From contig CANQIX010000003.1 in assembly GCA_947624105.1 (NCBI GenBank), forward strand, positions 1 to 57,274: a stretch of DNA of 57,274 bases. Direction: 5' to 3'. The stretch is from an uncultured Clostridia bacterium. GTDB taxonomy: Bacteria > Bacillota > Clostridia > Christensenellales > UBA1242. Shown here piece by piece: positions 8,462 through 57,274 of the stretch. The first letter of the stretch is position 1, and each line of letters begins with the position of its first letter. A program made the position numbers and the translations under genes. The notes under the pieces were generated by a model. The model ran no database searches. It was not told where the DNA came from and saw only the letters and a list, made by a program, of their open reading frames with translations.

Positions 8462-9436
8462 ATGAAAAGAAAGTTTTTGATACAACCAATAATGTTTATT
8501 TTGGCAATTTTTATGGTTGTTCCACTTGTTTTTGCAGGTTGCGGAACTACCAAGGACTATATTTTTAGCCTTAAATATGTCGAAAACTTCAAAATTATGC
8601 AGTTGGCAGATGTTCAGGCGTCTTCTGTTGAAAAATGCGAAGAGGCGTTTGTTGATATCAAAAAAATGGTAGAAAAAGAAAAGCCAAACTTAATAGTTTT
8701 GTCTGGCGATAATATCGATGTTCCGGAGAATGAAGATGTTTTTAACTGCCTTGTTGAAAGTATGGAGAGTTTAAACACTCCGTGGGCGCCGGTTTTTGGC
8801 AATCACGATGCCGAAGGCGTGCTTACAAAAGAGTTTATGGCAGAACGCTTTAAACAGGCAAAAAATTGCTACTTTGCAAGTGGCGAGGAAGGTGTTGACG
8901 GAGTTGGGAATTATGTAATCAACATAATGGACAAAAAAGAAGTTGTTTGCAGCGTCTTTCTTATTGACAGCAATATGTATTACGACGAAGAAAAAACAGA
9001 ATATGACTCGATACACCCAAATCAAATTGAATGGTATGAAGAGACGGTTAATTTTATAAAAGAAAGCAACCACAACAAAACTCCAAAATCGTTGGCGTTT
9101 TTCCACATTCCACTCCACGAATATCGCGATGCAAAGGAATCCTTTGAAAGAGGGGAGAGCGAAGGGCGTGCAGAATTTAATGAGGGAATATACAGCGGTT
9201 ATGAAAACACCGGATTTTTTGAAAAAGTTAAGGAACTGCAAAGCACCAAGGCGATTTTCTGTGGGCACGACCACGCAAACACTTGCGACATAAACTATCA
9301 AGGCGTGCATCTTGTGTATGGCTTAAAGTCATCAAGAGATTCCTATTACAACGAATCTTTGCTTGGAACGACAATAGTAACGCTTTCAAAAACCGAGATA
9401 AAGATTGAAAATAAGTTTTTTAGAGATTTGGATTAA
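8462..9436 (+). CDS. Metallophosphoesterase lipoprotein (Dcr2/PAP-like calcineurin fold)
   Basis: Lipobox FAGC; motifs ADVQ, SGD, FGNHD, FFHIP, CGHDH. Confidence 0.88.
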   Translation: MKRKFLIQPIMFILAIFMVVPLVFAGCGTTKDYIFSLKYVENFKIMQLADVQASSVEKCEEAFVDIKKMVEKEKPNLIVLSGDNIDVPENEDVFNCLVESMESLNTPWAPVFGNHDAEGVLTKEFMAERFKQAKNCYFASGEEGVDGVGNYVINIMDKKEVVCSVFLIDSNMYYDEEKTEYDSIHPNQIEWYEETVNFIKESNHNKTPKSLAFFHIPLHEYRDAKESFERGESEGRAEFNEGIYSGYENTGFFEKVKELQSTKAIFCGHDHANTCDINYQGVHLVYGLKSSRDSYYNESLLGTTIVTLSKTEIKIENKFFRDLD

Positions 9437-9595
9437 AAAATTATGAAATTCATACCAAAGGTGTAAATTAAACGACCTAGTTAAAAATTAAAAGCCACAT
9501 ACTATTGTGGTTTTATTTTTATTGGACAGCCCTTGAAACATAAAAAATTCCAATAAGTTGTGAGGGGGAAACGGACTTATCTGGAAACTAATAGA

Positions 9596-9851
9596 GCAGT
9601 TGCTTGATAGAATCAAGCCGAGCCCACGGCAATAAAAAAAGACCTAAAAAGGTCTAGTTTGGTGGACTGCCGGGGGAACGTTATGAAACTTGCTTAGGAG
9701 CAAGTTGAATGGCCGACCACGAAAACTTACTTGACCGGTCCGACCCGGACTTGTCCGGGGTTAACTGCAGGGCAGTTGCTTGATAAAATCAAGCCGAGCC
9801 CACGGCAATAAAAAAAGACCTAAAAGGTCTAGTTTGGTGGACTGCCGGGGG
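9596..9851. repeat. Direct repeat (9596-9676 and 9772-9851) of the tRNA-Lys 3' end, terminator and downstream palindromes
   Basis: About 80-bp near-identical copies (one substitution, one 1-bp indel), period 176 bp; each includes 17 nt of the tRNA 3' end. Confidence 0.93.
9810..9830 (-). terminator. Terminator of tRNA-Lys
   Basis: On the minus strand AGACC-TTTTA-GGTCT followed by a T tract, directly after CCA. Confidence 0.6.
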
Positions 9852-9910
9852 CTCGAACCCCGGACCCTTCGATTAAGAGTCGAATGCTCTACCAACTGAG
9901 CTAGCAGTCC
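9835..9910 (-). tRNA. tRNA-Lys(CTT)
   Basis: Reverse complement GGACTGCTAGCTCAGTTGGTAGAGCATTCGACTCTTAATCGAAGGGTCCGGGGTTCGAGCCCCCGGCAGTCCACCA; 76-nt cloverleaf, anticodon CTT, encoded CCA. Confidence 0.97.
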
Positions 9911-9946
9911 AAATTTGGTATACCACCGCAACAAAAAACTATGTGT

Positions 9947-9975
9947 ATTATACAACACATTTTTTTAATTGTCAA
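9947..9975 (-). promoter_or_regulatory. Sigma-A promoter of tRNA-Lys
   Basis: Perfect TTGACA-17 bp-TATAAT on the minus strand. Confidence 0.85.
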
Positions 9976-9989
9976 TCATTTTACAACAA

Positions 9990-10175
9990 TTACGCGTCAA
10001 AATTTGCGTCTGGGTCAATTACTCCGTGTAGACTTTCAAAATCTTGAAGATAGCGCTTAATTGCCATTTCAATTTCTTTATTTTTGGAACGACCATTGTA
10101 TTTTGCTGTGTAATCTATTTTTTTGTGCAATTTTTGTGAAATTCTAAGCGTATATCGTGGAAAATTGTATTCCAT
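9990..10175 (-). CDS. Arc-family ribbon-helix-helix DNA-binding protein
   Basis: 61 aa, MEYNFPRYTLRISQKLHKKIDYTAKYNGRSKNKEI; Arc-like YTLRI...GRSxNxEI; GGAGG RBS before ATG 10175. Confidence 0.82.
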   Translation of the reverse strand: MEYNFPRYTLRISQKLHKKIDYTAKYNGRSKNKEIEMAIKRYLQDFESLHGVIDPDANFDA

Positions 10176-10255
10176 AGATTTTCTTCCTCCATTGAGAAAT
10201 TTTACTAAATATTTAAAATAATTACACAACTTTGACGGCAGCGTGATGTCATATT

Positions 10256-10282
10256 TTCGACATATTTCGACACAATTCGACA
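10256..10282 (-). promoter_or_regulatory. Three tandem Spo0A boxes (TGTCGAA)
   Basis: ttcgaca at 10256, 10266 and 10276, exactly 10 bp apart; reverse complement is the consensus 0A box. Confidence 0.7.
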
Positions 10283-10318
10283 TATAACAATTTGGAAAAA
10301 AGATTGATATATATTATT

Positions 10319-11311
10319 ATGGGAAACACAAATTTAAAGGTTATATCAAAATCCGCTTTGCTAAATAATTTAAGCCGATTTGCATCTAAAAAAATATGCC
10401 TAATGGTCAAGGCAAACGCCTATGGGCACGGAGTGGCGGAAATTGTTAGGGCGAGCGATGATGTTGTCTATGCTTATGGCGTTGCAACAGAAAGAGAGGC
10501 GGTGGAACTTAGAAAGTTGACCCGAAGAAAGGTTATCGTCTTTGGGAAGGTGCAAGATTTTCATAATTGCGTTAAAAACAACATTGAATTTATGGTGGAC
10601 GAACTAGAAGACTTGTGGCTTGCAATAAAAAGCGGCGCAAAACACCTTATGCATCTTGCCATAAATGTTGGAATGAACAGATATGGATTTAAGAATAATT
10701 TTGATAAAATATTGCAAATTGTGGACAAAAATGAGGTAAAATTTTGTTCAATTTACACGCATTTCCCAAATACGAGCGATAAAAAACAGACGGAATATGA
10801 GTATAAAAAGTTTGTGGAAATTTCAAATAACTTTTTAAGCACTCCAAAGTGTTTGGGCGGCAGCGAGGTTTATGCCTATAACTTTGACTACGACATCTTG
10901 CGACTTGGAATATGCGCTTATGGATATGGCGATGGTGTGAAACCGATTATGAGAATAGAGTCTAAGATAGTGAAAGTTTTAAAGTTAAAACGCGGCGAAT
11001 TTATCGGCTACGGAAGGGAATATATGGCAAAGGAAGATGGACTTTTTGGAGTTGTGCCGATTGGATATTTTGACGGACTGAGAAGGGGACTATCTTCCAA
11101 TTTTGAAGTTACTATCGGCGGAAAGAAATATCACTCGGTTGGCAACATCTGTATGGATTGCTTTTTTGTTAAGATTGACAAGAATGTAAAGTTGTTTGAC
11201 AAAGTTGTCGTTATGGACGATGCCGATTATTTTGCGAAAAAGTTAGGCACGATTTCGTATGAAGTTTTAACAGGATTCAATTCGCTGCGCGCAAACACTA
11301 TAATAGAGTAG
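10319..11311 (+). CDS. alr: Alanine racemase
   Basis: VKANAYGHG (PLP lysine), GMNRYG, YTHF, IGYG, GYFDG, ICMD, TISYEVL. Confidence 0.93.
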   Translation: MGNTNLKVISKSALLNNLSRFASKKICLMVKANAYGHGVAEIVRASDDVVYAYGVATEREAVELRKLTRRKVIVFGKVQDFHNCVKNNIEFMVDELEDLWLAIKSGAKHLMHLAINVGMNRYGFKNNFDKILQIVDKNEVKFCSIYTHFPNTSDKKQTEYEYKKFVEISNNFLSTPKCLGGSEVYAYNFDYDILRLGICAYGYGDGVKPIMRIESKIVKVLKLKRGEFIGYGREYMAKEDGLFGVVPIGYFDGLRRGLSSNFEVTIGGKKYHSVGNICMDCFFVKIDKNVKLFDKVVVMDDADYFAKKLGTISYEVLTGFNSLRANTIIE

Positions 11312-56858: not shown

Positions 56859-56933
56859 GCGGGAGTGGCTCAGTGGTAGAGCGTTGCCTTGCCAAGGCAA
56901 ATGTCGCGAGTTCGAATCTCGTCTTCCGCTCCA
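56859..56933 (+). tRNA. tRNA-Gly(GCC)
   Basis: GCGGGAG...TTGCC-TT-GCC-AA-GGCAA...GTTCGAATC...CTTCCGCTCCA. Confidence 0.96.
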
Positions 56934-56987
56934 ATCTATGAAGTGGCGGGTTTGTATAATTTCTCAAATTCGCCATTTTTGTTAGAT

Positions 56988-57062
56988 GGTACCATGGCCA
57001 AGTGGTAAGGCAAAGGTCTGCAAAACCTTTATTCCCCAGTTCGAATCTGGGTGGTACCTCCA
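56988..57062 (+). tRNA. tRNA-Cys(GCA)
   Basis: GGTACCA...AAGGT-CT-GCA-AA-ACCTT...TTCGAAT...TGGTACCTCCA. Confidence 0.96.
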
Positions 57063-57100
57063 AAAAAATGCCCCAAAGTTTCTTTGGGGCATTTAATTAG

Positions 57101-57186
57101 GCCGGTGTGGCGGAATGGCAGACGCATGGGACTTAAAATCCCAAGTTCGAAAGGACGTGTGGGTTCGACCCCCACCACCGGCACCA
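57101..57186 (+). tRNA. tRNA-Leu(TAA)
   Basis: GCCGGTG...TGGGA-CT-TAA-AA-TCCCA, long variable arm, GGTTCGACC, CACCGGCACCA. Confidence 0.96.
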
Positions 57187-57209: not shown

Positions 57210-57274
57210 TGGTGGGGGTTAAAAAGCTTCGCTTTTTTAGCAAAACTTTGTTTTGCACGAACCCACACTGTGTG
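57210..57274. repeat. Inverted, hairpin-interrupted copy of the tRNA-Leu T-arm (cut by window end)
   Basis: tggtgggggt (57210-19) and cgaacccacac (57258-68) are the reverse complement of the tRNA's GTGTGGGTTCG|ACCCCCACCA, separated by two hairpins. Confidence 0.8.

Follow-up and report, generated by a model that had tools for sequence, protein, structure and literature searches.

Transfer RNA genes are classic landing sites for mobile DNA, and the sequences on their 3' side are usually read as terminators and scars. In the tyrT-type tandem repeats of Escherichia coli, 178-bp units follow a tRNA gene, and each unit begins with the tRNA 3' end. The locus reported here resembles that system: in both, an array lies directly behind the tRNA gene, and its unit of about 175–180 nt starts with the last 17–19 nt of the tRNA, including CCA. 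Behind tRNA-Lys, the tandem units have a spacing of 175–176 nt and each starts with the tRNA 3' end. To our knowledge, no inverted arm, hairpin rosette, or body family common to different tRNAs has been described for the tyrT-type repeats. The 3' external transcribed spacer of the E. coli glyW-cysT-leuZ transcript is an sRNA sponge, and it shares with the present elements the form of a structured, terminator-bearing trailer. The tRNA order Gly-Cys-Leu(TAA) is also present in our window, with a cassette behind the Leu gene. We know of no inverted copy of its tRNA's arm in that spacer RNA. The att duplications of integrases likewise repeat a 3' segment of a tRNA directly, beginning within a loop, and are comparable with the exact 17-nt repeat found here; they differ in that our repeats enclose no cargo or integrase, are accompanied by an inverted arm, and pass beyond the tRNA end.

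The window, that is, the whole stretch of 57,274 nt that was analyzed, is contig C3 of a 958,864-base, 50-contig assembly (designated G000). An earlier note made from these letters had described a palindromic element behind tRNA-Lys and supposed that it was templated on that tRNA. From the follow-up analysis we conclude, with high confidence, that positions 9660–9851 belong to a short tandem array as one of its units, and that the unit is a quasi-palindromic cassette, non-coding and tied to the tRNA-Lys(CTT) 3' end. With the same confidence, we place it in a family of cassettes that lie behind many tRNAs across a genus of ~1-Mb animal-gut Bacillota; their bodies can be conserved in sequence and are framed by inverted and direct copies of a local arm, mostly the T-arm, with the anticodon arm or the D-arm in some cases. 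The feature is real, conserved, and not due to chance. The family is apparently undescribed: searches of open-access text gave no account of tRNA genes that are followed by a split, inverted tRNA arm.

Genome and Surroundings

G000 has a G+C content of 38%, 34 tRNA genes as predicted by ARAGORN, and a completeness given as 98%. Genome sizes in its genus range from 0.7 to 1.5 Mb, and those in the other families of the order from 1.3 to 4.5 Mb. The sequencing runs in which the region occurs are metagenomes of animal guts, that of the rabbit in several cases. A gene adjoining the element encodes an alanine racemase, for which Bacillota is the commonest phylum in the Atlas.

Anatomy of the Cassette at tRNA-Lys

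The features of the locus are collected in Table 1. Read downstream on the tRNA strand, the terminator is followed by the inverted copy of tRNA positions 56–68, two abutting perfect hairpins, the inverted copy of positions 46–55, and a 2-nt turn; after the turn come a direct copy of the 5' strand of the T-stem, two further hairpins, and the final 17 nt of the tRNA, copied exactly and including CCA. In other words, the T-arm copies stand in the order direct-inverted-direct. In both the inverted and the direct copy, hairpins interrupt the T-arm within the T-loop. The arms, hairpins, fold-back, and 17-nt 3' end all lie where the earlier note had placed them.

Table 1. Features of the tRNA-Lys(CTT) locus and of the same design behind tRNA-Leu(TAA); positions are those of the window
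Feature	Position	Strand	Remarks
Promoter-like site for tRNA-Lys	9947–9975	-	12/12 consensus letters
tRNA-Lys(CTT)	9835–9910	-	Rfam tRNA, 69 bits; last 17 nt (9835–9851) begin the proximal repeat
Intrinsic terminator 1	9809–9830	-	Stem 9816–9830 plus T tract
Inverted copy of tRNA 56–69 (T-arm 3' half)	9795–9808	-	One mismatch; 9795–9807 is 12/13 against tRNA 56–68
Hairpin 1, within inverted T-loop	9778–9794	.	7 bp, 3-nt loop
Hairpin 2, within inverted T-loop, abutting hairpin 1	9763–9777	.	6 bp, 3-nt loop
Inverted copy of tRNA 46–55 (T-arm 5' half)	9753–9762	-	10/10
2-nt turn and direct copy of T-stem 5' strand	9744–9752	-	Pairs with 9753–9759 as the fold-back hairpin (9744–9759)
Direct-copy body	9677–9743	-	Imperfect hairpin (~9711–9743), hairpin 9687–9706 with C-rich loop, linker
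Direct copy of last 17 nt of tRNA, including CCA	9660–9676	-	Exact match to 9835–9851; closes the rosette with 9795–9808
Distal part of 175-nt tandem repeat	9588–9659	-	Second terminator (9640–9655), inverted 3' half (9619–9631), hairpin 1 (9602–9618)
Degenerate continuation of second unit	9560–9587	-	13-nt match to the fold-back region, 85%
Same design behind tRNA-Leu(TAA) (57101–57186)	57210–57268	+	Cut by contig end
Leu(TAA): inverted tRNA 68–77	57210–57219	+	
Leu(TAA): hairpins	57221–57237 and 57240–57256	+	
Leu(TAA): inverted tRNA 57–67	57258–57268	+	

What the earlier note had overlooked is a tandem repeat, and this alters what the unit is. Positions 9588–9676 are a direct repeat of 9763–9851 (gapless stretches of 57 nt at 96% and 42 nt at 88%; spacing 175–176), which makes the element a 175-nt unit within a tandem array. 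The duplicated parts are the tRNA 3' end, the terminator, the inverted 3' half, and hairpin 1. The array comprises about 2.3 units (~9560–9834), with a degenerate third start after the second copy. The repeat extends 71 nt beyond the tRNA end, and the unique non-coding stretch between the repeats is 87 nt.

A single strand of the 175-nt unit folds as the terminator hairpin plus a closed rosette, in which the inverted 3' half is paired with the direct 3' end around five hairpins. The fold energy is -65.7 kcal/mol against -44.0 +/- 4.1 kcal/mol for shuffles (z -5.26). The earlier note had raised the possibility of an assembly artifact. Unitigs of 205 and 206 nt, from runs X1 and X2, span 9611–9816 and bridge both junctions of the unique part; the two runs come from one study, possibly the window's own source, and may thus include the source sample. 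An artifact is countered more strongly by the conservation of the design in other genomes.

Other tRNA Genes of the Same Genome

The match between a tRNA and the inverted arm behind it was scored in two segments with an ungapped scheme of our own; blastn-short missed inverted arms of 10–13 nt. For tRNA-Lys, the cognate tRNA scored 20, non-cognate tRNAs reached at most 7, and 100 shuffles at most 13; for tRNA-Leu(TAA), the cognate score was 21 and these two maxima were 13 and 8, respectively. Among the 31 tRNAs of G000 with at least 80 nt of downstream sequence, only these two stand out. The comparison with non-cognate and shuffled controls that the earlier note had suggested therefore favors the cognate tRNA at both loci, and the layout behind tRNA-Leu(TAA) agrees with its claim that the same grammar recurs there.

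Other arrangements also occur behind tRNAs of this genome. The tRNA-Trp gene (contig C41) has an unsplit 14-nt inverted T-arm behind it and is followed by a unit of a second kind, type B (see below). Behind tRNA-Met (C11) there is a 103-nt tandem unit that begins at tRNA position 53, behind tRNA-Arg(ACG) (C22) there are three units with a spacing of 184 nt, and contig C46 has an array of tRNA 5' halves at its start. In G000, module motifs that match exactly or nearly so are found only beside tRNAs (behind Lys, Trp, and Arg-ACG) and are not dispersed. Looser matches of the short motifs elsewhere in the genome look like chance. In Rfam 15, no family except tRNA matched positions 9000–10400 or any of 12 cassette-bearing loci (E up to 0.1).

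The Split Inverted T-Arm in Related Genomes

Twenty tRNA-Lys(CTT) loci were chosen by similarity to a query containing the element, and the sample is thus biased towards it. The split inverted T-arm design, here called type A, is present in seven of them (G000, G005, G026, G015, G028, G003, and, truncated, G001), the type-B body in two (G022 and G027), and neither type adjoins the tRNA in the remaining 11. An unbiased search with a strict pattern found type A in 12 of the 154 genomes of the genus (14 matches, and none for the reversed pattern); the strict pattern misses known cases in G001, G022, G031, and G014.

Of 18 distinct type-A copies, drawn from 15 genomes, 14 keep the two abutting perfect hairpins, compared with two of 3600 shuffles. 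The stem sequences of these hairpins vary between species, and the first hairpin has seven or more different stems. It had been proposed that the architecture is conserved and the sequence is not, and these hairpins, which differ and are nevertheless perfect, bear this out. The inverted 5' half matches its own tRNA at all ten positions in 11 of 16 copies and at nine of ten in the other five. A variant of the T-stem is mirrored in the inverted arm in 12 of 12 genomes, three with the rarer pair and nine with the common pair; the T-loop variant of G129 is mirrored in its copy, and the acceptor variant of G022 in both of its stacked cassettes. The units of G022 are stacked, type B and then type A, with the more degenerate one distal. 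One site in the inverted 3' half shows a recurrent mismatch across copies, and the hairpin at 9687–9706 and its counterparts carry a C-rich loop motif.

An alignment of nine type-A first halves with MAFFT and RNAalifold misaligned the hairpins and was replaced by per-sequence folds and hairpin finding. In the per-sequence folds, the rosette topology is common to six of the seven full-length elements, taken one per species. Tandem units were also found in G028, G003, G015, G007, G006, G005, G129, and G161. The presence of cassettes varies between congeners: the cognate test was passed by six of the 34 tRNAs with enough downstream sequence in G031 and by one of 27 in G008. In G031, D-arm versions stand behind two Leu tRNAs, with positions 10–25 inverted and positions 17–86 direct.

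Bodies Common to Different tRNAs

The type-B body has a 22-nt core that is almost invariant and was found in 28 of the 154 genomes (41 matches, and none for the reversed pattern). Upstream of the body in 23 of 29 type-B loci, a complete tRNA stands no more than 260 nt away, and eight tRNA species are involved: Trp (12 loci), Arg-ACG (three), Leu-AAG and Leu-TAA (two each), and Leu-CAA, Lys-CTT, Asn, and Gln-TTG (one each). The cognate tRNA tops every non-cognate tRNA in 19 of these 23 loci for the inverted arm before the body, and in 20 of the 23 for the direct 3' end after it. The typical order is tRNA, spacer with or without a terminator, inverted T-arm (~50–68), turn, direct GGTTCGA, and a small hairpin with the loop TGTC, followed by the body with its own terminator-like hairpin and then by direct tRNA 61–76. 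In the T-arm versions, the body begins directly after the T-loop motif GGTTCGA, and behind Leu(CAA) the anticodon arm replaces the T-arm in the same design. The unit is often doubled. Bodies behind different tRNAs are 82–93% identical over 80 nt, and their arms differ. The earlier supposition that the element is built from whichever tRNA it sits behind thus finds support in the Lys and Leu loci of G000, in the covariation of the arms in 12 of 12 genomes, and in the eight tRNA species that precede type B.

The terminator-like hairpin of the type-B body has a T run and stems that differ between copies, and the direct pseudo 3' end lies beyond it. In several loci (G100, G097, G026, G150, and G005), there is no terminator between the tRNA and the type-B cassette. 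The direct repeats that bound the units measure 16–88 nt, and in some loci the bounding repeat is exactly tRNA 61–76 with no extra flank. Folding under RNA parameters favors the opposite strand in 30 of 31 type-B bodies and five of seven type-A elements, which composition may explain. Inspection by eye also suggested a possible short reading frame on that strand of type B, which was rejected because it passes through the variable arms.

A third body, type C, is common to tRNA-Glu of G031 and tRNA-Leu(TAA) of G017. A pattern search found relatives of the type-B body in three other families of the order. Five loci from outside the genus were read: L148–L150 look like true relatives, with no tRNA seen upstream within the available stretches, and L146 and L147, situated in sequence of coding appearance, seem to be chance matches.

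Enzymes and Integrase Islands

The earlier note had put forward a REP/RAYT-like HUH nuclease as a possible builder of the element, and this proposal found no support. The domain Y1_Tnp (PF01797; HUH/RAYT) is absent from G000, a genome that is 98% complete, and across the 154 genomes it does not track the cassettes: it was found in 17 of them, including only two of the 28 genomes with type B and two of the 12 with type A (both of the latter being fragments). Genes for TnpB, IS110-type transposase, and reverse transcriptase were also searched for in G000, and there were none. Six IS200-like loci in relatives contain none of three body-B motifs at up to one mismatch. Only two tyrosine recombinases were matched in G000, a Xer-like gene with a spoIVB-like neighbor and the fragment of a cut integrase, and neither is beside an array; the spoIVB-like label comes from reading the translation.

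In relatives, tRNA-Lys(CTT) is a site of integrase islands. Repeats of tRNA 31/32–76 are seen in G033 and G014, and a weaker island-type repeat (tRNA 30–76, 85% identity) in G011. The cassette of G033 lies outside its island, behind a displaced tRNA 3' half, and no inverted arm was found beside the left junction of the intact island. The ~100 nt that follow the pseudo 3' end of this cassette are the sequence found directly after the real tRNA in G025; no integrase was found for the flank common to the two genomes. For the idea that the element is a decoy for integrases, the evidence is thin and consists of one observation, this replacement of the real 3' end by a pseudo 3' end in G033 as compared with G025.

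Origin of the Cassettes

Two physical facts are solid: the complementarity between the inverted arm and the tRNA-type strand survives tRNA substitutions, and the bounding direct repeats start in a tRNA loop. We tentatively suggest that template switching at tRNA-arm hairpins creates the cassettes and keeps them in register, and that unequal recombination expands them, an explanation that may well be right and could equally turn out wrong. Template switching had been named in the earlier note, and it remains the mechanism that best fits the anatomy, from which it is judged. Replication would switch template at the tRNA-arm and terminator hairpins and thereby leave a direct-inverted-direct copy of the arm at the DNA level. 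Quasi-palindrome correction, together with selection protecting the real tRNA, would keep the copied arms matched to the tRNA, and unequal recombination between the repeated 3' end and terminator would yield tandem arrays. Bodies might be carried from one tRNA locus to another by recombination or by template switching and then have their arms re-templated locally; no dedicated transposase would be required.

We infer these steps from the known behavior of inverted repeats: perfect stems and apparent compensatory changes are reported as possible products of template switching (PMC8794818), which is also reported to be able to homogenize and expand the arms of inverted repeats (PMC8604942, PMC13100816). 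Quasi-palindrome template switches and fold-back inverted triplications (PMC8794818, PMC8604942, PMC11790251) share with our cassettes the direct-inverted-direct order, arms copied from the neighborhood, the lack of an enzyme of their own, and perfect stems with apparent compensatory change. They differ in that the known cases are single events or gene-scale amplifications, and no conserved family of small tRNA-arm cassettes with moving bodies is known among them.

Several observations, among them the terminator that type B has of its own, speak against template switching as the whole story. The near-invariant core of type B and its relatives in other families would not be expected of a neutral by-product, and a near-invariant 22-nt core points to a function or a recognition site. 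To bring one body behind eight tRNAs, template switching would have to occur several times or be joined by a distinct step of transfer; plain homogenization would erase the mismatch that recurs in the inverted 3' half; and simple fold-back does not account for the pairs of hairpins inside the T-loops. It is also conceivable, although we hold it to be doubtful, that the cassettes are a new class that is coupled to tRNAs and re-templates its arms locally, either as a mobile non-coding element that copies its ends from the target and has no known kind of transposase, or as trailer RNAs that each contain an antisense to the T-arm and 3' strand of their own tRNA and would tie one regulatory RNA to one tRNA.

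The terminator-like hairpin that type B itself carries, together with the missing terminator in front of it at several loci, suggests a transcribed unit, and the cassette probably rides on read-through tRNA transcripts. A possible but somewhat improbable alternative is that the cassette, transcribed with its tRNA by read-through or where no terminator intervenes, acts as a functional 3' external-spacer RNA, with the tRNA-derived arms as its closing helix or as an antisense, in cis or in trans, to the T-arm and 3' strand, and with the C-rich loops or single strands as a putative seed. Such a role would accord with the T run and differing stems of the type-B hairpin, the nearly invariant single-stranded C-rich stretch in that body, the missing terminators in the five genomes listed above, the C-rich loop of type A, the paired changes that preserve hairpins, and the glyW-cysT-leuZ precedent, whose tRNA order the window repeats. 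It fits less well with the strong terminator ahead of the type-A cassette in G000, inside which no promoter-like site was seen on that strand, with the better folding of the opposite strand, which gives no sign of selection on a sense RNA (composition may explain it), with a direct pseudo 3' end placed past the type-B terminator, or with the lack of an Rfam match. If the units were instead miniature integrative cassettes, a tyrosine recombinase would insert them at the tRNA 3' end through a folded single-strand site, the pairing of inverted and direct arms mimicking the duplex tRNA gene, as in integron attC or CTX phage attP. Those systems likewise show arrays of units beside a fixed site, single-strand imperfect inverted repeats that mimic a duplex site, a variable branched middle, and a kept mismatch, to which the recurrent mismatch in our arm helix would correspond. 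Integron arrays are marked by an IntI-type integrase and attI beside them and by GTTRRRY core sites. The direct tRNA-3'-end repeats that bound the units, in some loci exactly tRNA 61–76, the stacking in G022 with increasing distal degeneration, a flank in G033 and G025 that looks like a filled and an empty site, and the status of tRNA-Lys(CTT) as an integration hot spot in the genus (G033, G014, and more weakly G011) would agree with this. We nevertheless consider it unlikely: after a move by a recombinase, a cassette would still have the arms of its former site, but what the arms match is the new tRNA and not a fixed core. The cassettes carry no gene, no recombinase tracks them, any role of IntI or Xer is putative at most, G000 has only the Xer-like gene and the cut integrase, and the G000 repeat runs 71 nt past the tRNA end, unlike a core site. 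The intact G033 island has no inverted arm beside its left junction, and no integrase was found for the flank common to G033 and G025.

Still less probable, indeed very unlikely, is a decayed integrase island of which attL and attR were left after deletion of the interior. Direct tRNA-3'-end repeats and real islands at the same tRNA in relatives would suit it, but a mere 87 unique nt separate the repeats, the repeat takes in the terminator and part of the cassette, the G033 cassette sits outside its island after a displaced tRNA 3' half, and the design recurs behind many tRNAs with conserved bodies. Palindromes of the REP/BIME kind spread by a RAYT, or a hairpin-ended IS200/IS605 derivative targeting the T-loop, have been largely refuted as an origin and are scarcely credible. 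REP/BIME elements are intergenic palindromes near gene 3' ends, our cassettes too are rich in hairpins, and the type-B body of the T-arm versions starts right after GGTTCGA; however, the modules of G000 occur only beside tRNAs and are not dispersed, they have tRNA-specific arms and form much larger composite units, anticodon-arm and D-arm versions exist, and units bounded by direct repeats of 16–88 nt are unlike IS200/IS605 hairpin elements, which use a fixed short target and make no target duplication. To this are added the want of a RAYT and of a Y1_Tnp or TnpB partner in G000, the scarcity of Y1_Tnp in the genus (17 of 154 genomes, two of the 28 with type B), and the six IS200-like loci without body-B motifs.

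Implications for tRNA Flanks in Small Gut Genomes

Structured cassettes are kept behind several tRNAs across a whole genus of gut bacteria with very small genomes (six of the 34 tested in G031, for example); the ends of these cassettes are copied from the adjoining tRNA, and their bodies are common to different tRNAs. If template switching makes and maintains them, they would provide a clean natural system in which replication errors build and conserve complex hairpins without selection. Expression, if it occurs, would make them trailer RNAs coupled one-to-one to particular tRNAs. Either way, the partial tRNA matches and “att sites” in such genomes need to be read again.

Repeat units behind other tRNAs

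In the same genome as the window, tRNA-Arg(ACG) is followed by three units of 184 nt, in each of which a long nested palindrome resembling a terminator is combined with a second conserved hairpin module. These modules recur behind tRNA-Trp, after a type-B cassette (the form with the sequence-conserved body B), and are also present in two other genomes, G003 and G031. Downstream of tRNA-Met, we observed a tandem unit of 103 nt that begins at tRNA position 53 (25 nt exact) and contains a terminator and one hairpin; a clear inverted arm was not found in this unit.

At the start of another contig, at least three copies of one tRNA 5' half are arranged in tandem. Behind each copy, which comprises the acceptor, the D-arm, and a shifted anticodon-like hairpin, the opposite strand carries a hairpin that resembles a terminator. 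The full tRNA that matches these halves is missing from the assembly; their source is perhaps tRNA-Thr(CGT), which is missing from the tRNA list of this genome.

Outside the genus, a 2.6-Mb genome from another family of the order (G265) carries four copies of a body-B-like module, and no tRNA was seen upstream of the module at the one locus of the four that was read.

Within the window, the tRNA genes for Gly(GCC), Cys(GCA), and Leu(TAA) follow one another in the order of the glyW-cysT-leuZ operon of E. coli, the 3' spacer of which is a known regulatory RNA.

Locations of the features described
Feature	Sequence or genome	Position	Locus
Putative 97-aa reading frame	window	9990-10283 (-)	
Gly-Cys-Leu tRNA cluster	window	56859-57186	
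tRNA-Met unit	C11	23302-23480	L061
tRNA-Arg(ACG) units	C22	6510-7000	L063
Same modules behind tRNA-Trp	C41	880-1100	L060
tRNA 5'-half array	C46	1-300	L062
Upstream pseudo tRNA-Lys copies	G028, G033, G030, G027, G022, G017		L006, L007, L014, L015, L009, L017 (respectively)
Integrase islands	G033, G014, G011		L022, L023, L024 (respectively)
Body-B-like module	G265		L150 and three further places

Insertions and partial copies at tRNA-Lys(CTT)

In three congeners, tyrosine-integrase islands of 8-12 kb occupy the anticodon loop of tRNA-Lys(CTT). They are bounded by tRNA repeats, which span positions 31/32-76 in G033 and G014; in G011 the repeat is weaker (tRNA 30-76, 85% identity). A 2.4-kb remnant without an integrase, bounded by a tRNA repeat of the same kind, is found in G005.

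Immediately 5' of the tRNA-Lys promoter lies a putative reading frame of 97 aa on the minus strand, with recognisable counterparts upstream of tRNA-Lys in several congeners (L003, L011, L012, L013, L016, and L019).

In many congeners, the real tRNA is separated from its promoter by a pseudo copy that reproduces positions 1 to ~47 of tRNA-Lys. The D-loop of these copies is often altered, their anticodon loop often holds an insert of ~45 nt with a shared GCGTATGGAGCG-like motif, and some of them are followed by an inverted T-arm. Among the metagenome contigs over window 9863-9921, one contig in each of the four runs jumps from 9921 back to 9863, with 13 identical joining letters in all four, which suggests that co-occurring strains or relatives have a second, partial copy of the 5' part of tRNA-Lys in tandem. 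The pseudo copies are the counterpart, on the upstream side, of the downstream cassettes.
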